Assembly (NCBI GenBank): GCA_049673305.1
Contig: JBATXM010000277.1
Span: 1-28,050 of the forward strand
Source: Pseudonocardiaceae bacterium
GTDB taxonomy: Bacteria > Actinomycetota > Actinomycetes > Mycobacteriales > Pseudonocardiaceae
Direction: 5' to 3'
Length of the DNA stretch: 28,050 bases
This document shows positions 4,154 through 24,553 of this stretch, piece after piece. Under the pieces are notes generated by a model that was not told where the DNA came from, made no database searches, and worked only from the letters and a program-made list of their open reading frames with translations. Numbering within the stretch: the first letter of the stretch is position 1; every line of letters starts with the position of its first letter. A program made the translations under genes and the position numbers.

Positions 4154-4554
4154 CGCTCTACCTCGACTCGAGCGCGCTGCTCAAGCGATACATCGACGAG
4201 CCGGACAGCTCGCAGTTCACCACGATTCTGACCAGCGACGAGAGCTGGTTGACCTGCCGGATCACCTGGGTTGAGGTGTGGCGCAACCTCGGCAGGCGGC
4301 TGACCGGGGTAGATGCGCCCGTCGCTCGCGACGCTTTCCGAGCCGACTGGGCACACCTGGCCGTCGTCGAGATCGACGCCGTGCTCGCCGAGGACTCCGG
4401 TCGGATCGCCGACCTCACCGGGAGCCGCAGCCTCGACGCGGTGCACCTGGCGGCGATGCAGCGTGCCGGGCCCTCCGGCATCACGTTGGTGACGGCGGAC
4501 CTGAGACAGGCCCAAGCCGCCAGGTCGATGGGATGGTCCGTGCTCGGAGCGTGA
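4150..4554 (+). CDS. vapC: Type II toxin VapC (PIN-domain ribonuclease)
   Basis: LYLDSSALLKRY with the PIN acidic residue. Size and architecture typical of VapC. GTG start overlaps the antitoxin stop by 4 nt. Confidence 0.8.
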   Translation: MTLYLDSSALLKRYIDEPDSSQFTTILTSDESWLTCRITWVEVWRNLGRRLTGVDAPVARDAFRADWAHLAVVEIDAVLAEDSGRIADLTGSRSLDAVHLAAMQRAGPSGITLVTADLRQAQAARSMGWSVLGA

Positions 4555-4588
4555 CGGCGGTCACCGTTGGCCACCGCCACGTCATGTA

Positions 4589-4791
4589 TCACTGCTCGTC
4601 GAGCGCCTGATCGATAGCCTCATCGAATACGTCCTCGATCTCCCAGCGCTCCAGGATCCTCGCCGTTCTGAGGTCGGCCTTGATGCTCGCGCGATGCAGT
4701 TTGTACAGCGTGTCGCCGTAACCCCCTTGACATCATCCAGGCGAGCCTCAAGCGCGGCGATCCGGCGCTCCAACGTCTGCAGCGAAGCCAT
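4589..4791 (-). pseudogene. Small ORF (~67 aa) interrupted by an apparent 1-nt frameshift at a C5 homopolymer (4722-4726)
   Basis: N-terminal frame reads MASLQTLERRIAALEARLDDVKG. A second frame reads GYGDTLYKLHRASIKADLRTARILERWEIEDVFDEAIDQALDEQ* with stop at 4589-4591. One extra C/G in the homopolymer would join them. Confidence 0.3.
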
Positions 4792-4821
4792 GCGCCACCC
4801 TAACCGGGATCCCCGACAAGA

Positions 4822-8256: not shown

Positions 8257-11200
8257 TCAGGCGACCCCGTCAAGCGCGGTCTCGTCGAACACCACCGAAA
8301 GGAACCCCAAGGCTATCGCCGCGCTGACGCCCGCCCAGGCGACTGGTCCCAGGGGGGTGCAGCCGAAGAAGTGGCTGAGCCCGGGGGTTTGGACGATGCC
8401 GACGAGCACAGTCGCCGAACCCAGACTGGTGGCCAGCACCAGCGGACTGCGGTAACGCCCGACGAGCGTTTGGGTCAGCTGGGCGCCGACCAGCCCGCAC
8501 AGCGCCATGGTGCTGGTGCGCCGGGCACTTCCCGGGGTCAGGGTGCCCATGAGCCACGCGGTGGTGGCGCCCAGGCCGGTGAGGATGCCGCGGTGGCGGA
8601 TCTGGCGGGTCAGGGGCGCGTCGAGCATGGCGGTGCCGACGGGTCCGGCGCCGTGGCAGGCGTGGTGGTCGTCGGTGGGGGTGACCGCGACGGCCATGGC
8701 CGGGAACATGTCAGTAAGCAGGTTGACCAGGAGCAGCTGGCGGGTGGAAAGCGGGGAGTCGCCGGATAGCAGGGTGCCCAGCACGGTGAAGCCGACTTCG
8801 CCGGCGTTGCCTCCGAGCAGGATGCTGATGGCGTCGGCGACGCTGCGCCACAGCGCCCGGCCTTCGGTCACCGCCTCGAGCAGCACGGTGAGGTCAGCGT
8901 CGGTCAGCACGAGGTCGGCGGCGTTGCGGGCAGCGGCGGACCCGCGAGCGGCGATGCCGATCCCGACGTCGGCGGCGCGGATGGCGGCGGCGTCGTTGGC
9001 ACCGTCGCCCACCATGGCAACTACCCGACCGGCAGCGCGTAGTGCCTCGATCACCTGCAGTTTCTGCTCGGGCGTGACTCGTGCGATCACTCCGGCGTCT
9101 CGCAGGAGCCGGGCCCTGCCGGCGCGGTCCAGGGCGGCCAACTCCGGACCGGTGACCACGTTGGTGTTCTCCGGCCAGCCCAGCGTGCTGGCGATGGCCA
9201 ACGCGGTGTGGGGGTGGTCACCGGTGAGCATGACGGGGTTGACGCCGCAGTCGCGCAGGCCGGTCACAAGGAGGGCGGAGCTCGGACGCGGGGTGTCCGC
9301 CAAGGCGAGAAATCCGAGGAATTCCAGATCGTCCACGAGCTCGTCCACGGCCTCGTGCGGGTGGGATGGGTCGATGCGGCGTTGCGCGACGGCGAGCACC
9401 CGCAACCCATCGCCTGCCAGGTTTGCCGCAACGGTGGCGAGGGTCGGTTCCGCAGCCGGGCAGCAGGCCAGGATGACCTCGGGTGCGCCCTTGACCGCCA
9501 ACAGCGCTGTGGTTCCTGTTGTGCCGGTGGCTGCGGCGTACCCGCGGTTGGTTTCGAAAGGCTGGCCGCTGACCTGTGCCCAGTCGGGATCGGGTGGGGC
9601 GGCGGCCAGGACCGCCTCGTCGGTGGCGTGCGAGTGCTCGCCCGACTGGCGTCCGTCATCAGGGCAGGCGCGCGCTGCGGTCTGGAGCACCGCGCTTGCC
9701 TCGGGCTCTGTGGGTGAGTGAACCATGCCGTCCGCAGTGGCGACTCGGACCACCCGCAACCGGTTGTGGGTTAGCGTGCCTGTTTTGTCGAAGCACACTG
9801 TGTCCACCCGCCCGAGGGCTTCCAACGTGCGTGCGGTGCGCACCAGAATGCCGCGCCGGCTCAACCGCCGGGCGGCCGCCATCTGGGCGACCGTGGCCAC
9901 CAGCGGCAGTCCCTCGGGCACGGCGGCCACAGCGACCGCGACGCCACCGCTGATGGCCTGGCGGATCGGCCGGCCGTACAGCAGGGACAAGGCGGTCACC
10001 GTGGCGCCACCGGCCAGGGTGAGCGGCAGCGCCTTGCTGGTCAGTTCCCGCAGCCGGGTCTGTACCCCCGCCGCAGGGGGGGTACGTGACGCCAACGTGA
10101 CCGCTCGCCCAGTCTCGGTGTGCTCCCCGGTATCCACCACGACTGCTCTGGCCTGACCGGCAACCACAGTGGTGCCCTCAAAAACCATGCACCGGCGGTC
10201 GGCGATGGACGCGCTGGGAGACGCCGCCGTTACCTGTTTGGCCACCGGCAAGGATTCACCGGTCAGGGCTGACTCGTCAACTTCCAGATCGCTCAGGTCC
10301 AGCAGCCGAGCATCGGCGGGCACCACATCCCCGACATCCAACTCGATCACATCACCCCGGGCCAACTGGGCAGCGTCGATGACCTCGGTCCCCGTGCGCA
10401 TTTCGGACTCGTTGCGGGCAGTGCGCACCCGGCGGGCCTTCTGCTGCTGGGTCGCGGTCAAGGAGGCGAGGGCGCGTTCGGCGCGCAGCCGCTGGACGCC
10501 CCCGACCACTGCGTTGATTCCCATGGCGCCGAGGACCAACCCAGCATCCACAGTGGACCCCAGGATCGCCGATGCCCCCGCGCCCACCGCGAGGATCGGG
10601 GTGAGCGGGTCGTTGAGCTCGACGCGCACCGCATCGGCTAGTTGCAGCGACAACTTTATCGCTGCGGCACCGGGCAGTCGGAACGCCGTGCGGACGAGGC
10701 GACGTCGGTGCTCTGCTAGTCCTGACCTGGGGTCGGGGGCCGGTGGGGAATCGTTGGTCAGACGGCGCAGGACTCCCTCTGGGGTCAGGGCGTGCCAGAG
10801 GATCTGGGGGCGAGGGGTTGGTGCGGTCGTCGTCGCGACGCCCAGCGCGAAGCCCCACCCCGACAGCAACGCTGCCGCCGCAGCGAGGTTGACCGGGCTG
10901 ATGCGGGGCAACGGGGACAGCAGGTTTGCCCACCTTCGTTGCCCTCCGGTGATCACCAACAGCCCGGACAGCGCCGCGGCGGCCTGGGCGTAGGTCGTGG
11001 CATGCTGGCCGGCCTTTCGTGCTGCGGGCACAGCCCGCAGCAACCGCCACACACCCACCAGACCACGCACACACACCAGGTCCGCCGCCCACAGCACCGC
11101 GCTGCCCTCGTCGGCCAGCGTTACGGCGAGGTCTCCGCGCAACAGCCCGGCCACCACCTCCGGATCGGTCACCGCGTGCAGGCCATCCTGCTGCCTCCTG

Positions 11201-12579
11201 GTACTGAGCCGGGCGATCGTGAGCACCACGTGGCCGGCATCCTGCAGTGCGCTCACGACCTGCGACATACTCTGATCAGAGCCGACGATCTCGTCTGCCA
11301 GCTCCACGGGAGCGCCGACGGCGGGATCGCCAACCACCACCACCCGCAGACCAGCCTGCTGAGCGGCGTCCACCACGGCCCCAGCCAGCGGGTCAGGCTC
11401 GTGGCCCTGGACTGACAGGGCACTGGAATGCACCACCACGGTGTCCACGACCTGCAGCAACCGCAAACGTTCGCCGTCGCGTACCAGGACAGCTTCCCGG
11501 GCCAGGGCGCATCCCAAGGCCGCCTGGTAGGCGGCCCAGCCGTACCGGGCGGGCTTGGGGGAACCAGCCAACACCGCCGCGCTGGCCTCCTGAAGATTCT
11601 TTCTCAACAGCAACGTCGCCACCGCGCCGACCACACTTCCGGTGATGGCTTTCACCGCGTAATCGCCGAGCGGATCGACCGGAGCGGGACGACGAACAGG
11701 TGCGGTTGAGGCTGAGGCTGAGCTGATCCGTTCGGGCACACACAACTGGTCGTGGGCGGCGTCGAAGGCCACGACCCTGGCCACGGCTTCAGCCAGCTGC
11801 GACGCCCGCAGGACCGCATCCAACACCAGCTCGGTCGGCGACTGATCGACGCTGTACACGGCCGCGCTCGCGACGGCCAGCACGAAATCCGCAGTGGTCT
11901 TGCTCAGTGCGGAACGCAGCACCGAGCGCAGCCGAGGATCCTCTTGCAACAGTGTCAGGGCCGCGACTGCCATCGGTGGGGGACGCCGCAGACGCACCAT
12001 CCGAGCTGTCAACGCTCCCGCCACGCCCGCCGCGTCCACAGCCAGTGCGACTGCCGCCGCGCGAACCTCTCCCACCCCACCCGGGTGCGGAATCTCCTCA
12101 GCCTCCGCTGGCCTGGCGGCCAAGCCATGCCTGGCCGCCAACGAGGTCGCCGCCTCCACTACCCGGTCTGTGACCGCGTCCTCAGCCACCTGCACCACCA
12201 GGCGCCCCAAACCACCATCCCAATAAGCGACCAGAACATCGGGATGCTCCAACACTCCAGCGACGACCTTCTTCATCGCCTGCTGCGCCCCACGCGCCAT
12301 ACCAGCATCAGGGACACTCAACGGGAGGTGAAAGCGCTGGCCTTCCTGCCAGTGCGCGGCTCCCACCGCGACGACCCGACGCACCACACCCGTCACCGAC
12401 CGTGCGGCCTCGGTGGTCGCCCGGGCCCCAGCGCCGGCCACACCGACACCGATGGTGGCAGCCTCACCAGCAACATCAACCGCTGTGCGCACCACCACGC
12501 CAGCCCCACGCAGGACCCGCACAGGGGAGGTCAACACCAGCCCAACCCCCAGCCGCGCCAAAGCCCCCAGCACCATCAA
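8257..12579 (-). CDS. Cation-transporting P-type ATPase (P2-type, CtpH/CtpI-like) with ~590-aa N-terminal extension
   Basis: TGES (ALTGESLPV), PEGLP in TM4, DKTGTLT (D931, nt ~9787), TGDHPHTA, MVGDGANDAAAIRAADVGIGIA. Cation_ATPase_N-like LTPEGVLRRLTND at aa ~600. The N-terminal extension resembles a degenerate ATPase module (see findings). Confidence 0.85.
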   Translation of the reverse strand: MMVLGALARLGVGLVLTSPVRVLRGAGVVVRTAVDVAGEAATIGVGVAGAGARATTEAARSVTGVVRRVVAVGAAHWQEGQRFHLPLSVPDAGMARGAQQAMKKVVAGVLEHPDVLVAYWDGGLGRLVVQVAEDAVTDRVVEAATSLAARHGLAARPAEAEEIPHPGGVGEVRAAAVALAVDAAGVAGALTARMVRLRRPPPMAVAALTLLQEDPRLRSVLRSALSKTTADFVLAVASAAVYSVDQSPTELVLDAVLRASQLAEAVARVVAFDAAHDQLCVPERISSASASTAPVRRPAPVDPLGDYAVKAITGSVVGAVATLLLRKNLQEASAAVLAGSPKPARYGWAAYQAALGCALAREAVLVRDGERLRLLQVVDTVVVHSSALSVQGHEPDPLAGAVVDAAQQAGLRVVVVGDPAVGAPVELADEIVGSDQSMSQVVSALQDAGHVVLTIARLSTRRQQDGLHAVTDPEVVAGLLRGDLAVTLADEGSAVLWAADLVCVRGLVGVWRLLRAVPAARKAGQHATTYAQAAAALSGLLVITGGQRRWANLLSPLPRISPVNLAAAAALLSGWGFALGVATTTAPTPRPQILWHALTPEGVLRRLTNDSPPAPDPRSGLAEHRRRLVRTAFRLPGAAAIKLSLQLADAVRVELNDPLTPILAVGAGASAILGSTVDAGLVLGAMGINAVVGGVQRLRAERALASLTATQQQKARRVRTARNESEMRTGTEVIDAAQLARGDVIELDVGDVVPADARLLDLSDLEVDESALTGESLPVAKQVTAASPSASIADRRCMVFEGTTVVAGQARAVVVDTGEHTETGRAVTLASRTPPAAGVQTRLRELTSKALPLTLAGGATVTALSLLYGRPIRQAISGGVAVAVAAVPEGLPLVATVAQMAAARRLSRRGILVRTARTLEALGRVDTVCFDKTGTLTHNRLRVVRVATADGMVHSPTEPEASAVLQTAARACPDDGRQSGEHSHATDEAVLAAAPPDPDWAQVSGQPFETNRGYAAATGTTGTTALLAVKGAPEVILACCPAAEPTLATVAANLAGDGLRVLAVAQRRIDPSHPHEAVDELVDDLEFLGFLALADTPRPSSALLVTGLRDCGVNPVMLTGDHPHTALAIASTLGWPENTNVVTGPELAALDRAGRARLLRDAGVIARVTPEQKLQVIEALRAAGRVVAMVGDGANDAAAIRAADVGIGIAARGSAAARNAADLVLTDADLTVLLEAVTEGRALWRSVADAISILLGGNAGEVGFTVLGTLLSGDSPLSTRQLLLVNLLTDMFPAMAVAVTPTDDHHACHGAGPVGTAMLDAPLTRQIRHRGILTGLGATTAWLMGTLTPGSARRTSTMALCGLVGAQLTQTLVGRYRSPLVLATSLGSATVLVGIVQTPGLSHFFGCTPLGPVAWAGVSAAIALGFLSVVFDETALDGVA

Positions 12580-12734
12580 CCGTCCCTCACCAGGTAGCGC
12601 TGATCATGTTGTATCCGACCACACATACCCCCACAGTGCGGTGTCCAATCCCCGCCGACCGGGTCGTCGTCCGCATCACCCCGCGCAAGGTCGTCGGCTC
12701 GCTCTGCACCCCAGGCTCCATAAACGCCGGGACT

Positions 12735-12914
12735 CAGACCTCCCGGAGTAGCTTCTTTGACCTGGGGCACTGTAAGGCGTTCGCGTGAAAATCTGGTGAA
12801 TATCCGAGCATCCAAGGGTCTCCAGGCCTGCGAAGGACCGGCCTAGAACTCAAGATCATGGTTTGGGTGCCTCAGGTGACATGTCGTGTCACTTTCGGCA
12901 CCGAAACCGTGATC
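12735..12914 (+). repeat. Copy A of a ~180-bp conserved element containing a 65-nt extended imperfect hairpin (12851-12917)
   Basis: About 93% identical to 15250-15440 (one 10-nt indel). The last ~55 nt are identical. Nested stems: gatcatggtttgg/ccgaaaccgtgatc, ggtgcc/ggcacc, gtgaca/tgtcac, with loop tgtcg. Confidence 0.8.
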
Positions 12915-13809
12915 TTGATGGCCCTCACCCACCAGCCACTGGTGCAGCTGACCAACACGCTCCCGGTCGTCACTGGCATAGCTGAGGAATACCCTGACCA
13001 CCACACCTCCCGGGCACGATTGGGGACAACAAGCGAGCCCGGGTCTGCGGTGCGGTGCCAACCAGAGTCGTTCCGATGTGACGCGCGGTGTCGCCCGACC
13101 GAGGAGACGAGGTACTGGCGCGCTTCTCCGAGCTCTTGAGCTGGGACCAAAAAGTTGCTAATCAGGTGGACGCCATCGATATTTTCTACTTAGAGTAATA
13201 CTCTTCCGCCATTTTCGCACCCTGCTACCACCTGAATGTTGTTAGATCCACCATCGAAGAGTAGAAATATTCATACTGAGTGTTAGCGTTCCCGTACTTG
13301 CCGACAAGAGGTGACTCGGCGACGTAGTTCGGTTGCGCGCAGTCATAGCTGGTCGGCTGTCCAGTGGGCGGTTGGCAGGATGTTGGACAATTCTGGTCCA
13401 TGCGCACGTATGAGCGCGGCCACATCACCCGCAACGGTCGTGAGTACGTCGTGCTGCTCGCCGCAGCGGATCTCGGCACGCCAACTGGCTGAACAACTGC
13501 CGGAGACCGTCGCTGTGGCAGGTGTGGAGTTCCTCTACGGACCGCTGACGGAGAACCCCGCTCGAGCGAGAAACGCTTGTTGCAAGTAAGTGGCAAGTAT
13601 GTATGATGGTACCGGAGTTCGTTGGTGAGGTCCTCAGGGCTGAATGCACGGAGACTGTGCTCGCTATGGACGTGCTCACGACGTCTTGTTGCGCAGTGTT
13701 TGTGCCATGTCACAGAATGCTTACAAGGTCGTAAAAATTTCCGGAGGTAAGGAAACGACACTGACGGTGCCCGAGTGGCAGGGATTTCGATAGTAGGGAG
13801 AAGGCGAAG

Positions 13810-14520
13810 GTGATGCGGGCAACGTTCCACGCCGAGCTGGATGAGCTGATGGCCGAGCTCGCGCGAATGACCCGGCTGGCTGGCCAGATGATGACCAACG
13901 CGTCGATCGCGCTGCACCAGACTGATCTCGCCCTCGCGGGAGTGGTCATTGCTGATAGTGATCAGATGAACGGGATGCTCGAGGATATCGACCGGCACTG
14001 CGTCACCCTGCTGGCGTTGCAGGCCCCGGTCGCGGGGGATCTGCGGGTGGTGGTCGCGGCCTTGCACGCGGTGGGTCATGCGCAGCGGATGGGCCGTCTC
14101 GCCAGGTATGTCGCCATCGTTGCCCGGCTCAAGCACCCGAACCCGATGGTCTCCGGGAAAGTTCGTCCGGTGCTGGCCCGGATGAGCCTGCTTGCCAGCC
14201 AACTCGCCGAGGACGCCGCGACCACGATCGAGCATCAGGATCCGCTGTCCGGCTGCCGGCTGGCCGTAGCGGACGACGAGGTGGACGCGCTGCTGCGCCA
14301 CCTGTGCACCATCCTGTCCGCAGCGGATTGGTCACATGGTGTGGAACAGGCGGTGGACACCGCCCTGATCGGCCGCTATTACGAACGTTTTGCCGACCAC
14401 GCGGTAGCCATCGCACGGCAGTTCTGTTCGGTGGCCACCAGGAGGATGCCCGAGCCTGCGTCCACTGTGCCGCTACTCACGCCGGTCGTTGAACACGCCG
14501 GGGAGACAACGGGTCACTGA
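13810..14520 (+). CDS. phoU: PhoU-family phosphate signalling regulator (two PhoU repeats)
   Basis: ELDELMAELARM..DQMNGMLEDIDRHCVTLLALQAPVAGDLRVVVAALHAVGHAQRMGRLARYV, and a second repeat EVDALLRHL..LIGRYYERFADHAVAIARQ. GTG start preceded by AGGGAGAAGG. Confidence 0.85.
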   Translation: MMRATFHAELDELMAELARMTRLAGQMMTNASIALHQTDLALAGVVIADSDQMNGMLEDIDRHCVTLLALQAPVAGDLRVVVAALHAVGHAQRMGRLARYVAIVARLKHPNPMVSGKVRPVLARMSLLASQLAEDAATTIEHQDPLSGCRLAVADDEVDALLRHLCTILSAADWSHGVEQAVDTALIGRYYERFADHAVAIARQFCSVATRRMPEPASTVPLLTPVVEHAGETTGH

Positions 14521-14885
14521 TGCTGACCTGGTCGATGATGCTGTGGCGTCGTTCGCGGCTGCGGGGCAGGGCCACCCGCGACCAGGTCATAGAGGCCGAT
14601 GGGGTGGTGTTCGACGGCCCGCGGCGGCGGGTGCTGGTCGATGGCTATCTGGTGCATCTTCCAGCTCGCGAGGCCGCCGTGCTCGGCGTCCTCATGGCTC
14701 GCCCCGGCCAACTCGTGTACCGCCCCGTGCTGATCGATGCGGGATGGGGTGTCCAGCGAGCGCAGCACGGTGTTGTCGATCGGCTGATGCGCCGGTTGCG
14801 TCGTCGGCTAGAGCCCAGCCCGGTGTCTCCCGCCCGGCTTCGCCGCGTCGGTGACGCCGGCTACATCTTCGGTTCGATGCCCTAA
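14520..14885 (+). CDS. Standalone OmpR/PhoB-type winged-helix DNA-binding domain protein (no receiver domain)
   Basis: VVFDGPRRRVLVDGYLVHLPAREAAVLGVLMARPGQLVYRPVLIDAGWG...VDRLMRRLRRRLEP...VGDAGYIF matches trans_reg_C. The ATG overlaps the phoU stop (TGATG). Confidence 0.6.
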   Translation: MLTWSMMLWRRSRLRGRATRDQVIEADGVVFDGPRRRVLVDGYLVHLPAREAAVLGVLMARPGQLVYRPVLIDAGWGVQRAQHGVVDRLMRRLRRRLEPSPVSPARLRRVGDAGYIFGSMP

Positions 14886-14939
14886 GGGATCCGGCGTGGG
14901 GTCGCCAGAAGTGTCGGTCATCGGTGCCAGAACCAGGTC

Positions 14940-15266
14940 ATGAGCAGCAACGACGACCGTTTCGTGGTGCCGCTCTACTCGGTGGTCGAAGCAGCTCGTC
15001 ACCTCGACGTCCCCGCATCGACGTTCCGGACCTGGGCACATGGCTACCGGAGCTTGCGGAGAGGGCGGCCTCCTGCGGTTGGCGATCCCATCGTCACCAC
15101 CGTGCCCATCGACAGCGGAGTTTCCATCCCGTTCATCGGTCTCGCCGAGAGCTACGTACTCGCCGCTAATCGTCGAGCTGGCGTACCGCTTCAGCATATC
15201 CGGCCTGCCCTCGACCGCCTTCGTGATGACCTCGGGATCGAGCATGTCCCAGACCTCCTGGAGTAG
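14940..15266 (+). CDS. Small HTH DNA-binding protein (excisionase/MerR-like HTH)
   Basis: LYSVVEAARHLDVPASTFRTWAHGY resembles the Xis/MerR-type HTH. Weak RBS. The 3' end runs into repeat copy B. Confidence 0.45.
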   Translation: MSSNDDRFVVPLYSVVEAARHLDVPASTFRTWAHGYRSLRRGRPPAVGDPIVTTVPIDSGVSIPFIGLAESYVLAANRRAGVPLQHIRPALDRLRDDLGIEHVPDLLE

Positions 15267-15440
15267 CTTCTTGATCAAGGTCTGACCTGGGGCATCCGTA
15301 AGGTGTTCGCAGGAAAATCTGGTGAATATCCGAGCGTCCGAGGGTCTCCAGGCCTGTGAAGGACCGGCCTAGGACTCAAGATCACGGTTTGGGTGCCTCA
15401 GGTGACATGTCGTGTCACTTTCGGCACCGAAACCGTGATC
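15250..15440 (+). repeat. Copy B of the ~180-bp conserved element, with the extended hairpin at 15380-15440
   Basis: Direct repeat of 12735-12914. Weaker (~60%) homology continues ~300-500 bp downstream of both copies. Overlaps the 3' end of the CDS at 14940-15266. Confidence 0.8.
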
Positions 15441-16296
15441 ATGACCTTAGCGTCGCCTCGATGTGGGTCACCACCGCCTGCGGGCGGGAAGTTGTTCGCC
15501 CGCGCCCGGTTGGTGGGGTCATGGATGTGCGTGCCACACGAGCTGGTGGTGCGCAGGCGGGGTGACGGGCAGATGATGGCTCACCGCCAGCGAGCGCCGT
15601 ATCGATTGACGTTCATGACCTACTTGAGGAGGTCTGTGTCCGCGCTTCTCACAAGCTCTTTACCGACGGCGCTGAAGTACGCTACAACTACGCCAAAAAT
15701 GAGATCGTCGACTCGTACTTACAGCGCATCGATTTCCACGGCGACCAGTGGGCACGAGTTGTCCACCTCCCCAAGTATCACTAGGCCGACGTCGTCGTCG
15801 ATCAAGAACGAGGTTTCGGCGCACCGATCTTTGCCCGTGGGCCGATCTTTGTCCGTGGGGGAGTGCGGCTGGAGACTGTGTTCGCTGCTTTCAAGCGGGG
15901 AGCGAGAATCGACTTCCCTCGTGACCACGAGATCGCCGATCACCAGTGGATGTTGGAAGCGGCCCACCATGGCTGGCCAGTCCTTGGCGGTGACTCCAAG
16001 CACCGTCGACGCCGACGTCCTGCCGAACGAGCAGTGCTGATCGACGCCGGTGCACGGCCGTTTCACGGGCCGCTGTCCGCTCTGACGCTTAACCGCCTCA
16101 CCCTCGCCACTCCACGGGGGAGGTGGGGGGATCCGGTGCGGAGGTGCCGCAGATGGCAACTTAGGGTGAGAAGTTGCCATCTGCGGCAACCCCACACGCC
16201 GCGACAGTCCTTCCCCCGATCTCACTGACAGTGACATCGGTACGCGGTGTGGCAGACATCGGACTCCCAGCCCACCGATATGATCGTGAAACGACC

Positions 16297-16386
16297 GTGG
16301 CCGACGGGGTGGTGTTCGACGGCCCGCAGCGGCGGGTGCTGGTCGATGGCTATCTGGTGTACCTTCCAGCCTGCGAGGTCGCTGTC
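16297..16386 (+). pseudogene. Remnant (N-terminal ~30 codons) of a second winged-helix gene copy
   Basis: About 92% nucleotide identity to 14592-14683 (VADGVVFDGPQRRVLVDGYLVYLPACEVAV). Homology ends abruptly where the 3' end of the operon begins. Confidence 0.5.
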
Positions 16387-16404: not shown

Positions 16405-16545
16405 CTACATCCCCAGAAAGCCGAGGATCTTGCTCAGTACCGCTGGCTGAGTGATCCACCACACCGCGTCGGCGAGTGCTGCCATCAGTACCAGGACCAG
16501 CACGATACGAAAAACCAGGTAGTGCGGGGGCACGGAGGTTCTCAC
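16405..16545 (-). CDS. 46-aa hydrophobic (single-TM) peptide, last gene of the Hsp70/GTPase operon
   Basis: GTG start overlaps the TGA of the upstream GTPase gene (GTGA at 16542-16545). Sequence VRTSVPPHYLVFRIVLVLVLMAALADAVWWITQPAVLSKILGFLGM. Confidence 0.35.
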   Translation of the reverse strand: MRTSVPPHYLVFRIVLVLVLMAALADAVWWITQPAVLSKILGFLGM

Positions 16546-18173
16546 GACGCGGCCGCCAGCGGACGCGGGGCGATCGACACCCCGGAGCGGTCCAGCAGCC
16601 ACAACAGCGGACGGGCTGGCGAGGTGGGGCTCGCCAGCCCGTCCGCGTCGATCGCCGCGTCCAGCGACGACACCAGGAAGTAGCGGACCACGCCGAAGTC
16701 ACGCATGGTGCCGTCGAGCATGTTGTCCAGCCCTTTGCCGCGCAGCCAGGTCTCTATTTCCGCTGATTCCGCTTCGGGGTGCAGTCCGGTGGCCTGCAGT
16801 CCAGTGGCCTGCAGTTCAGTGGCAGAGCGCAGGTCGAGCAGCAGGTCAGCCTTCACCACAGCGACGGCGAGCGGCTTGCGCTTGAGCTTGACGCCCTGGT
16901 CACGCAGCCACTGCGCGGTGACCAGGTAGGACTGTTCGGGATGTACCTTCGCGGGTTGCGCTGTAGCGAGACGCGAAGCCAGCGCCCCGGTGACCTCGTC
17001 GGCGACGTCGGGTACCGAGAACGGGTCGAGGACGAACACGAGGCCCTGTGCGTCATCGAGGAACGGCAGCTCACTGCTGCGCTCGCGGTTGTTGAAGAAC
17101 TCGCCTGCCGCATCGAACAGATGCAGCAGCGCCTCGTGTCGGGCCGCCGTGAGCCGCAGCGTGATCCCCGCCGGTGGCCGGTCGGCGTCGGTCTTGGTGG
17201 TCTGCATCCCGGACTCGACCACCATGGTGGCGTCCCGGAAAGTGTCCGCGCTGTCCGGCCCGACCGGTTCCGCCGACCCGCCGGTCGCGTTCAGGTGCCG
17301 GACGAGCGCGACCATGCCGGCCAGCACCAGCCGGGTCTTGCCGGCTGAGGGCGGTCCAAACACCGGGACCAGCACGTCAGTCAGCACCGCCGCCCCGGCG
17401 CGCAAGGGGCGGTCGCATTTCTGACACACCGGCACCAGCCCGGCTGCGGCCCGCAACACGGTGGTTGGCAACAGCGACCCGCACTCGCACCGGCGCACGA
17501 ATGCGCCGAGCCGGCCCGCCCGGATGTCGTGATGGGTCTGGCCGCAGGCGCAGCGGTAGGCCGGCAGTCGGTTGCGGTAATTGCAGCCGGAGTAGTGGCA
17601 GGTCGCCTTCGCGCCGCGCAGCACGCGGATGCCCAGGTCCGCACCACGCAGCAGACCGACGACCACCAGCCAGCCGAGCCAGGGCAGCGCCAGCACCACC
17701 CCCAGCAGGGCGTAGACCACGGCGGCGCCCACGGCGGCGCCCACGGTCAGCGCGAGGGCCCCCACCAACGGCAGGAGCAGCAGCGGCCAGAAGAAGAGCA
17801 TCACCGGCTCGTCGCACACGAGCTGAAACAGCCATGTCCACAGGCGTGACACCGCGTGTGCGATGTGGTTCGCCGCCGTGCCGAGGTCGGCTCGGCTCTG
17901 CGCGAACAGGTAGCCCGGCCACGCGCTGTCGCGCGCGAAGTTCGACGTCACCCGCCGCACCCGAGCCAGCCGCTGGCTGACGTCGAATGGGGTGACGTTC
18001 GGGGCGGCCAGACCCCCGACCCGCAGCAGCGTCCCCGCCACCACCACGACCACCAGTAACACGCCGATCCCGCCCACGCCGAGCACCACAAAGGGCCAGG
18101 CGGGACCGACCAGGTAGACGACAGCATAATAACAGGCCACGAGGTACAGGGCGATCCCGATTAATGCGGGCAC
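16542..18173 (-). CDS. Membrane-anchored double-Zn-ribbon P-loop GTPase-like protein
   Basis: Two N-terminal hydrophobic regions (~4 TM). Cys clusters CHYSGCNYRN..CACG and CECG..CQKCDRPL. Walker A VFGPPSAGKT, Walker B LHLFDAAGE, NKxD-like VKAD. GTG start 3 nt after the upstream stop. Confidence 0.8.
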   Translation of the reverse strand: MPALIGIALYLVACYYAVVYLVGPAWPFVVLGVGGIGVLLVVVVVAGTLLRVGGLAAPNVTPFDVSQRLARVRRVTSNFARDSAWPGYLFAQSRADLGTAANHIAHAVSRLWTWLFQLVCDEPVMLFFWPLLLLPLVGALALTVGAAVGAAVVYALLGVVLALPWLGWLVVVGLLRGADLGIRVLRGAKATCHYSGCNYRNRLPAYRCACGQTHHDIRAGRLGAFVRRCECGSLLPTTVLRAAAGLVPVCQKCDRPLRAGAAVLTDVLVPVFGPPSAGKTRLVLAGMVALVRHLNATGGSAEPVGPDSADTFRDATMVVESGMQTTKTDADRPPAGITLRLTAARHEALLHLFDAAGEFFNNRERSSELPFLDDAQGLVFVLDPFSVPDVADEVTGALASRLATAQPAKVHPEQSYLVTAQWLRDQGVKLKRKPLAVAVVKADLLLDLRSATELQATGLQATGLHPEAESAEIETWLRGKGLDNMLDGTMRDFGVVRYFLVSSLDAAIDADGLASPTSPARPLLWLLDRSGVSIAPRPLAAAS

Positions 18174-18176
18174 GGC

Positions 18177-20684
18177 TCACTCACCCCGCTTCCCAGGCGG
18201 CTTGCCCGACCTCGCGCTGGATCGGTGGCGCAGGCTCCAGCGACGCCCTTCCCGCTCGGACACCGCCCGCTTGGACACCCAGTCCCACCATGGCTGCCCC
18301 AAACCACTGGGGTAGCTGCGCTCGACCGCGCTGCGGAGCTCCTCGGGCATCCCGGCGACAAGCTCCGCGAGCCGGTCGAGCAGGGCACTGAAGGTTGTGC
18401 GCTGCTGGTCGGTCTCCGGCTTGCCGGTGGCAATGCTGAAGGTGAACGCGAGGGCCCGGCACTCGTCGACTGTCGCGGTGCCGGCGCGGCGGGGCAACCT
18501 GGTTTGGAGAGCCTCGTAGATCGGGATCGCGGCGGTGTCCGAGCAGCCCTTGAGCACGGCCAGCGCGCTGTCGCGGGGCGCGGCGAGCAGGCTGTCGACC
18601 ACGATCGGCGCTCTGACCTCAAGTAACGGCGCAGCCACGCCGATCAGTGCGGTCGCCAAGCCCGCACCGGTGGCGCTCGACCCGCAGTGGCGAAGAGTGT
18701 CGCTGGCATGCAACAGTGCCTGGTCGCTCTTGTGCAGCTCAGCCAGCGGCGGCGGCAACGAATGGCCTTGCTGGCCGAGCTGGTCGATCATCCACAAGAT
18801 GTTCTCCGACAGGGCCTGTGCTGGCTCGAGCACCGCACAGAGCCGGGACCCGACCTCCGGGGAGACCGTCCGGCCGCCCTCCACCAGACCGGCCAGGAAT
18901 TCGGCCGCCTCGCGCTTGCCCGGCGTTCGCGCGCCGAAGACGATGTCCCAGGCCACCGTGCTCGGATGAGTTTCGCCCACCATCCGCGCGAACGCCCACT
19001 GCTGGATGTCTCGCATCAGCCGATTCCACCTCGCGCCCTCGAGGTGCTGGCAGGCCTCGGACATCACCTGTACGTCCAGCTCGTCACCCGGATCGCACGC
19101 CTCCGGCCACAGCGGCCGCCACCAGCAGGTACGGACGGCCGCCACGGCGTGGGCCTGGTGCGGGCCCGCCAACCAGCCGCGCAGCACGTCGCGCACCCAG
19201 TCTAGTGCCTCGGGCGGCGCGGGCCACCGCTGCGGCTGCAGGTCCGGGGCGGGTTGTTGCACCCACCAGGCGGCGAACCCATAGGCGGCATCACGGAACG
19301 TCGCGGTGGCCGGGTGCACAGCGTGCCGGTGCGCCACGGTGAGCAACGCGGGCACCTGGTCTGGACGCGCCCCCCGCAGCGCCGCCTCGACCTCGGCGCG
19401 GGCACGCTCGCAGTCCTCATCCGGACGGTCGAAGACCCGCAGCGGCGGGAGCGCGGTGAGCATGCGCAGTGCGTCAACCCCGTCGGACGCGGCCAGGGTC
19501 TCGCTGATCTCGGCGGTGAGCAGCCTGCGCTGGATCGGAGCGCCCGCCCGCGCCCACCCGCGCGAACCGGCGGCGGCGGCCAGCGGGCGGAGCACGGGCG
19601 CGGGCGGGGCCGTATCCAGCATCGCCTCCAGGACCGCGTCGCGGGCGATCCGCATCGCGTCCTCGGGCGCGGTCAACAACCAGTCCGCCGCCTCCTTGAG
19701 CTGGCCCGGTGCAGTCAGCCGCTCACCAGTGGCGACCACAGCTGCGGCGAGCCGATCGGTGCTGGTCGGCTGCGCGTTCCCAGCGCCGGCGGCGCGGGCT
19801 TTGGCGAACTGTTCCGCGAGCTCGACCGCATCCACCACGTCGTAGGCGTCCTCGGCCAGGAAACGGGGGACCCAGAATCCCGCAGCGGTAGTGGGCTCCA
19901 CGGCGGTGTGGCCTCCCCGGTCCAGGTCGAAGACGGTGAGCCCGCTCCCCGACCTGGTGTCCGCCCACCGCCCAGCCCACTCCGGGTGCAGCGCGATGAT
20001 GTCGTGCTGGCCGTACTGGCCATCCGCCACGAAGATCTTGAAGCTGACCCGCAGCGCCTGCGGTTGAGGCACCAGCAGGGTCGCGGCGGCGATCCAGCAC
20101 GCGGCCTGCTCGGGGTCAGCGCAGACGAGGACCACCGTGCGCCGGTGCGCGGGATCGGTGAGGCGATGGATCGCGGAGAGCAACGCGGTGAGCCGCTCCT
20201 GGCCACCCTCAGCGTCGCGCACCCGGTCGCGGACGGTCTCGACGTCGAGTAGCCCCGGTGCCGGGTGCTCCGCCAACTCGTCCAGCTCGGTATCCGGCGC
20301 GGGCTCAGTCGCCCACCAGGGTGCGGCCCACAGCTGCGCGGGCCGCACCACCCCGTAGCTGGCTGGATCGCGGGTGACGACGGCGTGGGTGAACTGGTTG
20401 CCCTCCCGGGTGCCGTTCGCCTCCTGGCCGAGGTAGCGCCCCGCCGCGGTGACGAACAGCTCCCCCTCGGCTGTGTGCGCCAGCGACGGTGGGTACTCGG
20501 CGACTGGCCTGCGCTCCCGCATCCAGCGCACCGGAGGCTCGTAAAGCCCAGTGCGCTGCACGATCGGCATGGCCTCGGGGGCGAGGCCGGGGGAGGCGGC
20601 CTGGAACTGGAAGCCCGCCCCGCCTTGCAGGCCCTGCCCCGGCCGGCAGTCGGTGTAGTAGAGCGAGCCGAACCCCCTACTCAC
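18177..20684 (-). CDS. Large (~835 aa) conserved protein with N-terminal GFGSLYYTDC..GAGFQFQAAS motif (GAP1-like, tentative)
   Basis: GTG at 20684 overlaps the TGA of the upstream GTPase gene (GTGA), which argues for this start over the ATG at 20726. Mostly alpha-helical. No enzymatic motif recognised. Confidence 0.7.
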   Translation of the reverse strand: MSRGFGSLYYTDCRPGQGLQGGAGFQFQAASPGLAPEAMPIVQRTGLYEPPVRWMRERRPVAEYPPSLAHTAEGELFVTAAGRYLGQEANGTREGNQFTHAVVTRDPASYGVVRPAQLWAAPWWATEPAPDTELDELAEHPAPGLLDVETVRDRVRDAEGGQERLTALLSAIHRLTDPAHRRTVVLVCADPEQAACWIAAATLLVPQPQALRVSFKIFVADGQYGQHDIIALHPEWAGRWADTRSGSGLTVFDLDRGGHTAVEPTTAAGFWVPRFLAEDAYDVVDAVELAEQFAKARAAGAGNAQPTSTDRLAAAVVATGERLTAPGQLKEAADWLLTAPEDAMRIARDAVLEAMLDTAPPAPVLRPLAAAAGSRGWARAGAPIQRRLLTAEISETLAASDGVDALRMLTALPPLRVFDRPDEDCERARAEVEAALRGARPDQVPALLTVAHRHAVHPATATFRDAAYGFAAWWVQQPAPDLQPQRWPAPPEALDWVRDVLRGWLAGPHQAHAVAAVRTCWWRPLWPEACDPGDELDVQVMSEACQHLEGARWNRLMRDIQQWAFARMVGETHPSTVAWDIVFGARTPGKREAAEFLAGLVEGGRTVSPEVGSRLCAVLEPAQALSENILWMIDQLGQQGHSLPPPLAELHKSDQALLHASDTLRHCGSSATGAGLATALIGVAAPLLEVRAPIVVDSLLAAPRDSALAVLKGCSDTAAIPIYEALQTRLPRRAGTATVDECRALAFTFSIATGKPETDQQRTTFSALLDRLAELVAGMPEELRSAVERSYPSGLGQPWWDWVSKRAVSEREGRRWSLRHRSSARSGKPPGKRGE

Positions 20685-21877
20685 GCCCGGCTCCGGCCGA
20701 TCACACCGAAACCGTGGAGCAACCACAGCAGCGGCTCCTCGACGCGGAAGGGCTGCACACCGCCCGCGTCCACTTCCCTGTTCGCGTAGTCCGGCTCGGC
20801 GCCCAGCGCTGACACCGCGAAGTAGCGGAAGGTCGCGTAGTTGTGCATGAGGTGCGCGTCAATGTCGTCCGCGCCGTACTCGTGCAGCATGGCCCGCACG
20901 TGCTCGTGAGTGTCCTGACCCGCGCTCTCGTCGTAGCCCGGCAGCGCCGAGGGCTTCACCAGCAGCGGATGGTTCCCGCCGAGTACCGGAAAGAAGGCGT
21001 CCATCTTCGCGAACACGACGGCCAGCGGCACCGTGACCCGCCGGCTCGCCTTGACCTGGTGCGAGACCCGCAGCAGCTCGGTGATCCGGTTGAGCACCTC
21101 CAGCGGAGGCTCAGCGTCCCGGACGACGGAGGCGGGAACGTCGATGTGGTCCATCGCGCCGGGCAGCTGCCACGGGTCGAGCAGCAGGACCAGCCCGTTC
21201 GCCACGCCAAGGTAAGCCTGGGTGTGCACGCGGTCTTGGCTGGTGAGGTCCTCACCCGCGGCGTCGTAGAAGGAGAGCACCGTCGTGGCGAAGGTCTCGA
21301 TGCCCAGCCTGCGCGTGGGCTGGCGCCACTCGATGACGACCGGTGTGCGCAGCCCGTTGAGTGCCCCAGGTGTTTGCTCGAACAGCCTGCCCTGGGTGAA
21401 CAGCTGCTCCTCGTAGTTCTCCAGCCACTGCCGGGGCGACCCGGCGCCGCCTTGCTGGTCCCCGGTCAGTCGGATGTCGGCCTGGAACCGGCGCCGCACC
21501 GTCGTGCGCAGCTCGTGGTGCAGCACCGACAGGTACACCGTCTTGCCGGCCCCCTTGCCGCCGACCATGCCGACGAGCGGGCTGCGGCTTTCCGCGAAGG
21601 TTGACGACAGCGGGGTGTGGCACGCCGGGCAGGCCCGGACACCGGTGAGTCCGCCGCAGTGCGGGCACGCCGCCTGGCGGGGGCGCTCGAACGGGCGCCT
21701 GGACTGCGACATGAAAGTCGGGTACATCGCTGTCCGGACGTTCGTCAGCTGCTGGCGGAGCTCGTCCTCCCGCTTCGCGCACCTCGGGCCGCCTGGAACT
21801 CCGCGTCCGAGGCACTGGTAGGCCAGTTTGCCCTGGTTGATGGGGTGGTAGCAGTACGGGCAGGCGACGGTAGCCAT
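20681..21877 (-). CDS. Double-Zn-ribbon P-loop GTPase-like protein (soluble paralog)
   Basis: CPYC..CLGRGVPGGPRC and CPHCGG..CPAC. Walker A GMVGGKGAGKT, Walker B SFYDAAGED, NKxD-like AKMD. ATG lies 1 nt after the upstream gene stop. Confidence 0.8.
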   Translation of the reverse strand: MATVACPYCYHPINQGKLAYQCLGRGVPGGPRCAKREDELRQQLTNVRTAMYPTFMSQSRRPFERPRQAACPHCGGLTGVRACPACHTPLSSTFAESRSPLVGMVGGKGAGKTVYLSVLHHELRTTVRRRFQADIRLTGDQQGGAGSPRQWLENYEEQLFTQGRLFEQTPGALNGLRTPVVIEWRQPTRRLGIETFATTVLSFYDAAGEDLTSQDRVHTQAYLGVANGLVLLLDPWQLPGAMDHIDVPASVVRDAEPPLEVLNRITELLRVSHQVKASRRVTVPLAVVFAKMDAFFPVLGGNHPLLVKPSALPGYDESAGQDTHEHVRAMLHEYGADDIDAHLMHNYATFRYFAVSALGAEPDYANREVDAGGVQPFRVEEPLLWLLHGFGVIGRSRA

Positions 21878-21878
21878 C

Positions 21879-24548
21879 TCAGGACACCTTCAACTGGCCT
21901 ACCGGCGGGTCGAGGAGCAACGCGGGCGCGGGCTCGGCGAGAAAGCACCGCAGCCAGTACGGCTTGGGCAACCGAGGCACGGGCGCCCGCAGCACCACCG
22001 GCGCCGCGGGGTCGACCACGACGGGCGCCCGGAGCAGCTCCACTCCCGCCTCAGCAGAGCGCGGCATGGCGTGCCCGGTCGCGGCCACGATGATCACGGT
22101 GACGCCGGGGACCGGCTCGGCGCCGGACAGCGTCACCACACAGGTCACACCGCCCGCGAGGCGGTGGCCCCGGCGACGCAGCTGGTAGCTCAGCTGGGGG
22201 AGCCGCTGCTCGACGTCCACCGAGGTCAGGGGCGAGTGGCTCTCGCCGCTCTCGCCGCGGATCACGGCACCCACCTCGACGCGCGACACCCCCGGGACGC
22301 CGCGGACCTGGCAACCACCCTCGTCGCGGTACTGCGCCAGGGTGATCCGGCGCCCGCCGCCAGCCCACCGCACGTCGGCCGCGCTGGCCATGTCCGGCCA
22401 GCGCCAGGTGACGCGGACGTCGTCACCGAACCGTTGTGCCCGCACCCGGCGCACCGGATCGGCGAGGTCCACGACGGCGTCCTGGCCGCGGACCGCGCCA
22501 TCCGTGCCGAGGGTGAACGGCACGCAGTAGGAGCGACCGGGCGGCACCGACGCGAGCAGCGTCATCGACTCACCCTTCGCCGTGCCCGTGCCCTCGAGCT
22601 CGACGCCGTAACCCGCCAGCTCCGCCAGGGTCACGAGCTGGCCATACTCCCATGGGCACGGACGGGGCGAACGCCGGATGACGATCTCGCTGCCGGGGCG
22701 CTGGCGCCAGGACAGCCGCACCTGCAGGCTCGCGTCAGCGACCGGCGTGGCAGTCAACGCGGCGACCGGGCGGGCCTCCGGGCGGGTCGCGCCGCGCACC
22801 ACAACAGGCGCGCAACGCTGCGTAGCACCACCATTGTGCGGCGGGTAGCAGGCGATCAGCGTGTAGTAGTACTGAACGCCGTCCACAGCCGTCTCGTCGC
22901 GGAATGCGCGGTTGCGCTCCACGGTTATCGGCTTGCCCAGCGGTTTGCCGGGGCACTCGGGGAGGCCCTCGCTGCGGTGCACCTCGACGGTCGCGACGTC
23001 GGGGTGCACCCGCCAGCGTCCGGTGACGACGTTGCTCCCGCCCTCGACCACCACGTCGGTGACCGGCGGGAGCACTCGTACCGTGGCGCCGGCCGGGCGC
23101 GACCACTGCCGGCCTGCGGTGCGCGCGAACACCGCATAGTGCACCTGTCGCCCGACCGGGGGGGCGTCGTCGATGCTCGAGTGCCCGGACCTGATCGGGA
23201 TCTCGCGGCCGTCCTCGACGTCGACCGGCTCGCGGCCCTCCCGGCGAACCACCCGGAACGTGGTCTGCTCACCGTGATCGGGTGCTGGGCGCCAGGCGAT
23301 GCGGACGCCGGCACCGTCGGCGCTCGCGGTGACCCCGAGGACCGGCGCGGACGGCACCGTCGCGAGCTCGTGGGCCAGCTCCGGTGAGTCACCAGCCAGC
23401 CGCAGCGCCTCCCGCAGCCGCGCTGCGGCCTGCTCCTCACGACCTGCCCGCAGCTCCGCCGTGGCGGCCCGGCGCAAGTTCTCGACCTGCTCGTACTGGC
23501 GCTGCACGGCGTCGCGCACCGCCTGGCCCTGCGGGCCGGCCAGGGTGCTCGCCTGCTGTTGCGCGGCGAGGAGCTTGCCCTGCGCCAGCAGGGTGGTGAT
23601 GTCCGCGAGCGGGTCGCGCCGGAGCCCGGATTCCGCGAGCACACTCACGACGACCCGGCCCGCGTCGGCGCCCGTCAGCCCGCTGCGGGTCAGCAGGGCG
23701 AACAGGGTACGGGGCTGGGCGCCTTCGGCACGCTTGTCCCGCACCGCCTGCAGCAGGTGGAACAGGGCGAGCGCGGTGAGGTCGGTGCCAGCCTTGGCCT
23801 CACTGACCAGGATGCCCACCGCCTCCCGCCGCGCGCGGGTCGCTGGGCTGTCCGGCGCGGTGTCCAGGTCCGCTCCGCGCAGCTGGGCGACTTTCTGGGA
23901 CAGCGCCGCGTCCCGGTTTCTTGGCGCCGGGGTCACGGTGAACCCGCCGAGCAGACCGAAGGTGGCCAGATCCGGGAACAGCAGCCGAGGGATGCTCTCG
24001 ACGCCCCCGGCGATGAGCTTGGTGTTCAGGCTCTCGATCCTGCCGCGCATCCCGGCCGTGCTCGGGAGCTCGACCGGCTCGATGATCCGCAGTCCCGCGC
24101 CTGCGCTGGCCCGTTCGATCTCGGCGTCCCCGAGCGTGGGATGTGCCGCAGCCGCTGCCCGCAGCTGGTTGCGCGTGATGACGCCAAGCTCGCCGTGGCT
24201 CGCCCGGAGCAGCGCGGTCAAGTCCGCGATCTCCGAGCCGAGCTGCTGGTGACGACCCTTCTCCCAGGCCTGCCACCACTGCGGGTTCGTGAGGTCCGCG
24301 CTCGTGCTGCGGGTGAGCTCCTCGTGCTCACGCAGCAACTGCTGACACACCAGGCCGGTCGGCCCGGCCTGCATCGCCGCCTTGTTCCACAACCGGACCA
24401 CGCTCTCGATCCGCTCGCGCAGCGCGGCGCCATCCATGGTCACATCAACCGCGTAGCGGGTCCGCAAATCGTCGGGAAGATGCGGCAACCGCCTGCGTAG
24501 GGGCTTGAGCACGCGGTCTTCGTAGGCCCGGGGATTAAAGCCAGCCAC
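21879..24548 (-). CDS. Large protein: ~400-aa helical N-domain plus four or more FN3/Ig-like beta-sandwich repeats
   Basis: Repeated segments VRIAWRPAPDHGEQTTFRVVRREG, VTGRWRVHPDVATVEVHRSEG, LQVRLSWRQRPGSEIVIRRSP, VRVTWRWPDMASAADVRWAGG. GTG start 5 nt after the Hsp70 stop. Confidence 0.7.
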   Translation of the reverse strand: MAGFNPRAYEDRVLKPLRRRLPHLPDDLRTRYAVDVTMDGAALRERIESVVRLWNKAAMQAGPTGLVCQQLLREHEELTRSTSADLTNPQWWQAWEKGRHQQLGSEIADLTALLRASHGELGVITRNQLRAAAAAHPTLGDAEIERASAGAGLRIIEPVELPSTAGMRGRIESLNTKLIAGGVESIPRLLFPDLATFGLLGGFTVTPAPRNRDAALSQKVAQLRGADLDTAPDSPATRARREAVGILVSEAKAGTDLTALALFHLLQAVRDKRAEGAQPRTLFALLTRSGLTGADAGRVVVSVLAESGLRRDPLADITTLLAQGKLLAAQQQASTLAGPQGQAVRDAVQRQYEQVENLRRAATAELRAGREEQAAARLREALRLAGDSPELAHELATVPSAPVLGVTASADGAGVRIAWRPAPDHGEQTTFRVVRREGREPVDVEDGREIPIRSGHSSIDDAPPVGRQVHYAVFARTAGRQWSRPAGATVRVLPPVTDVVVEGGSNVVTGRWRVHPDVATVEVHRSEGLPECPGKPLGKPITVERNRAFRDETAVDGVQYYYTLIACYPPHNGGATQRCAPVVVRGATRPEARPVAALTATPVADASLQVRLSWRQRPGSEIVIRRSPRPCPWEYGQLVTLAELAGYGVELEGTGTAKGESMTLLASVPPGRSYCVPFTLGTDGAVRGQDAVVDLADPVRRVRAQRFGDDVRVTWRWPDMASAADVRWAGGGRRITLAQYRDEGGCQVRGVPGVSRVEVGAVIRGESGESHSPLTSVDVEQRLPQLSYQLRRRGHRLAGGVTCVVTLSGAEPVPGVTVIIVAATGHAMPRSAEAGVELLRAPVVVDPAAPVVLRAPVPRLPKPYWLRCFLAEPAPALLLDPPVGQLKVS

Positions 24549-24553
24549 GTGCG

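Follow-up and report, generated by a model that had tools for sequence, protein, structure and literature searches.

In this study, we analysed a 28,050-nt stretch of a Pseudonocardiaceae metagenome-assembled genome (MAG), namely positions 1 to 28,050 of the forward strand of contig JBATXM010000277.1 in assembly GCA_049673305.1 (hereafter the window, which spans the whole contig), in which two near-identical repeats, copy A and copy B, each carry a long hairpin. We found that these repeats are very probably copies of a small non-coding MITE (miniature transposable element with inverted repeats) of soil actinobacteria, with the hairpin as an internal palindrome of the element and not a dedicated regulatory RNA. 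Our confidence in any particular role of the palindrome is much lower. The MITE family is undescribed, and we found no described family with CAGACCTCC... ends; bacterial MITEs as such are known.

An earlier reading of the window, made from the sequence only, had described two near-identical elements that differ by one 10-nt indel. Copy A (12735-12918) and the first part of copy B (15250-15444) are indeed direct repeats, with 94% identity over 147 nt plus a 23-nt block. The 10-nt indel lies between these two blocks, and the segment concerned, GATCAAGGTC, is absent from copy A and present in every other member of the family. In addition, the terminal 55 nt, which had been reported as identical in both copies, agree at 55/55 positions up to GTGATC, and a 37-nt core occurs exactly twice in the window, against zero occurrences expected. 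The hairpin that the sequence-only reading had seen in each copy is also real. It is an inverted repeat with 32-nt arms, which are 84% complementary, and a 5-nt loop. The positions of both copies and of their parts are listed in Table 1.

Copy B is a precise insertion with a 5-bp target duplication, and it splits a gene for an HTH_66/VapB45-like antitoxin. This follows from its terminal inverted repeats (TIRs), the TGTCC on both sides and the gapless rejoined protein. A search of the window for the TIR 17-mer with <=3 mismatches gave three matches, against 0.07 expected. Copy B is collinear with two independent complete copies from other loci (designated here by L numbers), L017:4503-4897 and L019, and its right TIR occupies the place where L017, L019 and L020 have theirs. 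Furthermore, when 15250-15641 (the element plus one TGTCC) is deleted, the reading frame is restored and the product aligns without gaps to intact homologues. The rejoined protein reads ...LGIEHV before the junction and RASHKLFTDGAEV... after it, and six intact HTH_66+DUF433 homologues of 235-244 amino acids read LGIEHVLASRKLFTDGAEV there. The HTH_66 profile agrees with this alignment on the junction. The tail of copy B contains a second, smaller inverted repeat, which is paired in the fold of the whole element and is kept in L015, L016, L017 and L019.

Copy B is in the sense orientation relative to the interrupted gene. The upstream open reading frame (ORF), 14940-15266, encodes the HTH_66 domain, and its product appears as a 108-amino-acid hypothetical protein (P0008) in the Pseudonocardiaceae MAG annotation. 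For the annotation, this means that the 108-amino-acid "hypothetical protein" of the contig is the front half of the antitoxin gene. Compared with the intact homologues, the gene has decayed otherwise as well, with a 24-codon deletion and an in-frame TAG at 15782-15784. An 18-bp tandem duplication was also seen at 15824-15859 in the decayed antitoxin gene region (14940-16225).

Table 1. Coordinates of the two copies, their parts and the interrupted gene in the window (TIR, terminal inverted repeat)
Feature	Positions	Strand	Basis
Copy B, complete 387-bp MITE	15250..15636	+	Family profile positions 1-396, E 7e-125; TIRs at both ends
Copy B left TIR, CAGACCTCCTGGAGTAG	15250..15266	+	17-mer identical at 17 contig ends of MAG JBOHFR01
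Copy B right TIR, CAGACCTCCTCAAGTAG on minus strand	15620..15636	-	15/17 match to left TIR
Target-site duplication TGTCC, left copy	15245..15249		Direct sequence reading; fits DGNCH
Target-site duplication TGTCC, right copy	15637..15641		Direct sequence reading; excision restores frame
Copy B internal 69-nt imperfect palindrome	15376..15444		32-nt arms, 5-nt loop TGTCG
Second, smaller inverted repeat in tail (CCACC..GCGGGCG / CGCCCGC..GGTGG)	15471..15516		Direct sequence reading
Copy A, left TIR to palindrome end, 10-nt internal deletion	12735..12918	+	Family profile, E 9.5e-47
Copy A left TIR, CAGACCTCCCGGAGTAG	12735..12751	+	TIR search; preceded by GGACT
Copy A internal palindrome	12850..12918		Inverted-repeat search, fold energy
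HTH_66/VapB45-like antitoxin gene, 5' part	14940..15249	+	PF21321, E 1.8e-32; HTH_66 profile positions 1-103
Continuation of interrupted gene to in-frame TAG	15642..15784	+	HTH_66 profile positions 98-174; alignment to P0001-P0009 across junction

The family is not restricted to the window. An exact scan with the left 23-mer, covering one genome per species, gave 17 matches, all in one Pseudonocardiaceae MAG (JBOHFR01). The flanks of these 17 left ends are all different, and each left end is oriented outward, with a contig end 47-354 nt away. This arrangement indicates a multicopy repeat that breaks short-read assembly. The number of insertion sites with different flanks is at least 18 in JBOHFR01 and 2 in the MAG of the window. 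One of the JBOHFR01 copies, L017:4503-4897, is complete: it is 395 bp long, has perfect 17-nt TIRs (17/17) and TGTCA on both sides, and is surrounded by sequence with no relation to that around copy B. In addition, a scan of soil metagenomes, which used the invariant right arm of the hairpin as query, yielded L019, a complete copy of 399 bp, together with L020, which is a right end, and L021, which is a left end. The target-site duplication (TSD) of L019 has decayed (AGCCC/GGTCC, 2/5 positions differ). All of the 25 true termini have G at position -4 and C at position -2 (25/25), and the target is a DGNCH pentamer.

The full element is about 390-440 bp long with about 62% GC. It has 17-nt TIRs beginning CAGACC, the 69-nt palindrome about 125 nt from its left end, and a GC-rich tail with the second hairpin. 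Two types of palindrome were distinguished. Type I, the majority in JBOHFR01, is perfectly palindromic over all 69 bp (RNA fold -61.8 kcal/mol, DNA fold -41.7 kcal/mol). In type II, found in both window copies, L017, L019 and L021, TCAG faces TTTC as an asymmetric bulge of 4 nt, and there are scattered mismatches. The type-I copies are about 48 nt longer than the complete copies B (387 bp), L017 (395 bp) and L019 (399 bp). In locus L017, two copies (4503-4897 and 5347-5517) are arranged left end to left end with 449 nt between them; one copy is complete and of type II, and the contig end cuts the other, a type-I copy.

No conserved ORF was found in the element, and the open frames vary between copies, with indels that are not multiples of three. 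A Pfam search of the element translations gave nothing except one sub-threshold DUF match. Prokaryotic MITEs are defined as short elements (typically <500 bp) with TIRs of about 4-30 bp and flanking direct repeats (PMC10969869). The present element has the length, the TIRs and the target-site duplication of a MITE, no coding capacity and multiple dispersed copies. The sequence-only reading had offered a MITE-like repeat as its third candidate, and this candidate was correct: many dispersed copies with target-site duplications, which had been named beforehand as the mark of a MITE, are what we found. We also tried to derive the coding or intergenic context of the copies and their orientation bias from codon-position GC periodicity. 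This approach was dropped as unreliable, because it placed the known gene at copy B on the wrong strand.

The most plausible reading of copy A is an independent insertion with a later truncation at the palindrome. Its left flank is unrelated to that of copy B, and the GGACT in front of it (12730-12734) fits the DGNCH target pattern. It also carries private changes, namely the 10-nt deletion and a compensated outer stem. The family profile matches copy A at model positions 1-178 only, even at E <= 10, and this match stops precisely at position 12918, where the palindrome has its outer edge. No right TIR for copy A was found in the window.

The sequence-only reading had also reported homologous sequence of about 60% identity 3' of both copies, and it took the conserved head and decayed tail as a sign of selection on the 5' element. 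The tail homology was examined by Smith-Waterman local alignment against shuffles and by nhmmer with a family profile built from seven members. The sequence downstream of copy A scores 17 against the internal tail of copy B, and the shuffle mean is 17.9; the homology was therefore not borne out. The appearance of a conserved head and a decayed tail arises because copy A is truncated at the palindrome edge and has no tail. Comparison across the family gives 82-94% identity for the tail and 81-92% for the head, and the two parts are equally conserved. Thus, the element as such is not characterised by selection on its head.

Two other explanations of the repeat pair were considered and rejected. 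The first is a composite transposon with the left end of copy A and the right end of copy B. Its outer flanks, GGACT and TGTCC, form no duplication, and copy B has a TSD of its own. The second is a clean insertion of copy A in a gene. The minus-strand flanks of copy A join in frame, but the left flank adds nothing to a match with the TIR_2 profile. This match belongs to a short minus-strand ORF at 12919-13061, RVFLSYASDDRERVGQLHQWL, which ends at the palindrome edge of copy A. The match is weak (E 0.01, below cutoff) and covers the first 26 TIR_2 positions; the remainder of such a gene is absent. In addition, searching the six-frame translation with the HTH_66 profile gave no paralogue fragment downstream of copy A.

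Copy A might also have arisen without its own transposition, either as a partial segmental duplication of the copy-B locus or through metagenome misassembly across the repeat. A 33-nt stretch at 13105-13137 resembles the last 11 nt of the right TIR of copy B, the TSD and the first 20 nt of the host gene of copy B, and its distance from the palindrome equals that of its counterpart in copy B. Another small duplicated fragment is present in the region (14594-14680 and 16299-16385), and misjoins are typical at repeats and palindromes. However, the similarity of 13105-13137 to the right junction of copy B (a 36-nt stretch) is marginal, with a score of 30 inside the shuffle range (20.2 +/- 2.8, maximum 34), and protein-level support for it was absent when the six-frame translation was searched with the HTH_66 profile. 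The unlike left flank ending in a DGNCH-type pentamer and the private changes of copy A also argue against a duplication or misjoin. Furthermore, a second assembly (L022) reproduces the copy A arrangement exactly; it is 100% identical over 11058-16166 (5.1 kb) and adds no variation. On this evidence, we regard such an origin of copy A as improbable, and we retain an independent insertion with later truncation.

No transposase was found in the window. The parent insertion sequence (IS) was sought by blastn of the whole element and of its terminal 102 nt against plasmids, by two scans of viral contigs and by a fuzzy TIR-pair search of all fetched loci, and none of these gave a parent. A full-text literature search for the terminal sequence returned nothing either. 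We propose that a DDE-type transposase encoded elsewhere would move the element in trans by recognising its TIRs, and that this transposase would make cuts staggered by 5 bp, which would give the 5-bp target duplication.

With regard to the palindrome, the plus-strand RNA folds at -45.5 kcal/mol in copy B and at -47.9 in copy A, and the minus-strand RNA at -40.4 and -38.4, respectively. The plus-strand fold has z -9 to -11, with 0/200 shuffles as good, and the minus-strand fold has z -8.4. For the whole element, the z-scores are about equal on both strands (-7.7 and -7.3). As DNA, the palindrome of copy B has -25.7 kcal/mol. The type-I and type-II palindromes are 13% different, as much as the rest of the element. 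Three spacer variants were found (CGACG, CGACA and TGTCG). The TGTCG of the window is the reverse complement of the CGACA in L001, L002 and L006; therefore, the 5-nt spacer is flipped between lineages (L001, L002 and L006 versus L015, L016 and the window). Moreover, three stem positions change on both sides: T-A/G-C between the types, A-T in copy A versus T-A in type I, and C-G in L021.

In DNA hairpins and cruciforms, template switching between the arms and hairpin breakage yield flipped spacers, perfect arms and truncation at the palindrome edge. DNA-level copying from arm to arm can explain the paired stem changes equally well as RNA selection. We suggest that the palindrome is the element's own internal module, which could form a cruciform or hairpin in DNA, and that processes at the DNA level would maintain its symmetry. 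Within one strand, template switching from arm to arm may have produced the perfect 69-bp version, the paired stem changes and the flipped loop. Likewise, breakage provoked by the hairpin may have left copy A with its end at the palindrome.

The sequence-only reading had also put forward a structured leader or small RNA (sRNA). According to this explanation, the 180-nt head would be a plus-strand structured RNA (a cis-regulatory leader or sRNA) under selection for RNA structure, and the repeat would reflect function and not mobility. The very stable hairpin, which folds better on the plus strand, and the three pairs that change on both sides are in line with it. So is the strand bias of the one-sided stem transitions, of which 5/6 are G.U on the plus strand. 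The bias was first noticed as what was taken to be the sole stem difference between copies A and B, a wobble thought to hint at plus-strand transcription. The C/T difference at 12859/15385 does give U-G on the plus strand, but it is not the only one: in a slightly longer stem, 12915 is T and 15441 is A, and the outer stem of copy A is fully paired. The bias does extend to other stem positions (plus-strand G.U in 5 cases, minus-strand G.U in 1), but it is not significant (one-sided p about 0.11), and six further events are mismatched on both strands. Stem covariation is not above the shuffle control either (136/500 shuffles as good, with 89% of cells paired among five distinct sequences). In addition, the minus strand also folds, and by z-score the two strands of the whole element are equal.

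Evidence from outside the fold also speaks against a dedicated RNA. Rfam gave no match in the whole window at the gathering threshold, and none at E <= 1 for 12600-15750 or L018. A promoter and terminator scan found no promoter-like or terminator-like site in either copy. Copy B sits inside a coding sequence, with TIRs and a TSD, and the copies are dispersed in unrelated contexts (inside coding sequence, intergenic and with other flanks), with no constant position relative to a regulated gene. Thus, nothing we found supports a leader or sRNA, and selection of the head as a plus-strand RNA appears very improbable. The earlier remark that no T-tract follows and that the hairpin is not a classical intrinsic terminator was correct, as there is no T-run after the stem on either strand. 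As a mobile element, a copy that is co-transcribed, such as copy B on the plus strand, would still give RNA with a very stable hairpin. Such a hairpin in a host transcript could impede transcription or translation or alter mRNA stability, and this would be a side effect.

It should be noted that several points weigh against a simple MITE with a passive palindrome. Intact TSDs were found in only two complete copies (TGTCC at copy B and TGTCA at L017). No autonomous partner with matching ends was found in the sets searched, and we infer the transposase family and the mechanism from the TIRs plus the TSD only. All the sequences come from metagenome assemblies, and the junction of copy A could in principle be an assembly chimera, though L022 is identical over 5.1 kb. 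Furthermore, the palindrome is 69/69 identical between copy B and L017, two copies from different genomes that were obtained without reference to the palindrome, whereas their heads are 88% and their tails 85% identical (12-15% differing). This identity hints at a constraint that is not explained by a purely passive palindrome.

One candidate for such a constraint is protein binding. The palindrome would then be a cis-acting transposition site (subterminal, for a transposase or host factor), or an operator for a dimeric host regulator carried by the element. The 69/69 identity fits this idea, and so does the perfect two-fold symmetry of the type-I copies. Among the type-II copies, the palindrome also has fewer variable columns than the remainder (7/69 vs 55/253, p = 0.038); however, this value is inflated because L019 and L021 were selected by an exact right-arm match, and the difference is not significant when the right arm is left out. 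In addition, the palindromes of types I and II are as far apart as the remaining element, and type II has mismatches besides its asymmetric bulge of 4 nt. A symmetric site of 69 bp is also far longer than typical operators, and no candidate binding protein was identified. Therefore, we consider a protein-binding site quite unlikely.

More broadly, the palindrome might be a selected functional module of this undescribed actinobacterial MITE family. It could be a cis-requirement for mobilisation by a transposase group with a DGNCH 5-bp target, or a plus-strand RNA hairpin that insulates or attenuates transcription at each site of insertion. This possibility is raised because of the 69/69 identity, the paired stem changes and the 5:1 plus-strand G.U bias, and we hold it to be conceivable but rather unlikely. 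The element would represent a new kind of system only if the palindrome were functional or the missing transposase were unusual.

We also considered whether the hairpin is a part or a specific target of an IS110-family (bridge-RNA-guided) element. In the metagenome locus L018, a 31-nt match to the palindrome arm (30/31) lies about 250 nt upstream of an IS110-family (DEDD/Transposase_20) gene. However, when 12 copies of this IS110 from different loci were aligned, its left end fell at TGAGTCCCCG, 27 nt downstream of the arm, and the arm is therefore flanking DNA. None of 14 other IS110 loci (0/14) carries arm or MITE sequence, and their flanks are mutually unrelated. The element studied here is also set apart from IS110 membership by its TIRs and 5-bp TSD. 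Thus, on the data examined, the link is refuted, with practically no probability left to it, and the IS110 is an unrelated neighbour. It is speculative that the L018 flank is a palindrome arm fused to a diverged right end, that is, an internal-deletion derivative between two TCATGACC repeats. The IS110-family element itself (L018 1-1714 and L023-L036) is very abundant in soil Pseudonocardiaceae, with thousands of proteins at E <= 1e-40, of which the top 120 are 85-100% identical. It has a conserved non-coding region of about 230 nt before the transposase gene, where a bridge RNA is expected.

Compared with known systems, the present element is similar to IS-derived prokaryotic MITEs (Correia/NEMIS of Neisseria and the families in PMC10969869) in being <500 bp, in its TIRs and TSD and in having no transposase gene. 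Many dispersed copies, insertion in or near genes, and transcripts that are predicted as very stable stem-loops are further shared features. In contrast to IS-derived MITEs such as Correia, however, it is GC-rich (about 62%) and not AT-rich, and its DGNCH target contains GC, whereas Correia elements duplicate TA. Its stable structure also differs, being an off-centre internal 69-nt palindrome and not end-to-end pairing. With the ERIC/IRU and REP/BIME repeats of enterobacteria, it shares the dispersed non-coding copies, the long imperfect palindrome core and the RNA hairpin on co-transcription. REPs are mobilised by RAYT (HUH) transposases (PMC2817692). The enterobacterial repeats are without clear TIR and TSD signatures of DDE transposition, whereas 17-nt TIRs and a 5-bp TSD are present here, with the palindrome as only one internal module.

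With regard to the target duplication, the present element shares with 5-bp DDE transposons a putative 5-bp staggered cut and a weakly palindromic target consensus, which is typical of a symmetric transpososome. The DDE transposons with 5-bp target duplications include the Tn3 family with its TIME derivatives, the IS2 group within IS3, IS1634, ISH3 and phage Mu. The termini of the present element are unlike the GGGG... ends of Tn3 or the TG...CA ends of IS3 and Mu, and we claim no membership in any of these groups. Finally, intrinsic terminators and terminator-like repeats (SPRITE) share with it a stable GC-rich hairpin that can form in RNA on either strand. The present element differs in having no U-tract on either strand and in its 32-pair stem, which is far longer than the stems of terminators.

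These results have some practical meaning. The repeat breaks Pseudonocardiaceae MAG assemblies, since 17 contig ends in one MAG stop inside the element, and genes are split. Recognising the MITE prevents the repeat from being mistaken for a regulatory RNA. In addition, the known MITEs gain a GC-rich family whose DGNCH target is strict and whose internal palindrome is long, and the element is a small natural example of palindrome evolution in place, through arm-to-arm correction, loop flipping and edge breakage.

Several other features were observed around the two copies. The fragment present at both 14594-14680 and 16299-16385 is an 84-87-nt piece of a Trans_reg_C (OmpR/PhoB-type winged-helix) gene, duplicated at 91% identity, and its second copy sits downstream of the broken antitoxin gene. 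This duplication suggests that the region accumulates small rearrangements. The GC content is 57-58% at 12800-14000, compared with about 69% elsewhere in the contig, with an AT-rich patch at about 13140-13300. This low-GC stretch, which separates copy A from the PhoU gene, may be of foreign origin or may have decayed.

On the minus strand, a cluster at 16542-26909 encodes a Double-GTPase 2 protein, a GAP1-N2/GAP1-M protein, a weak second DO-GTPase2, an 889-amino-acid protein without a Pfam match, an HSP70-like protein and GrpE. This cluster resembles GTPase-centred conflict or defence systems. Another minus-strand ORF, at 8257-12579, encodes 1440 amino acids and corresponds to a P-type cation ATPase, in which the Pfam domains start only at about residue 715. 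This ORF is probably over-extended at its 5' end, or else the protein has an unusual N-terminal extension.

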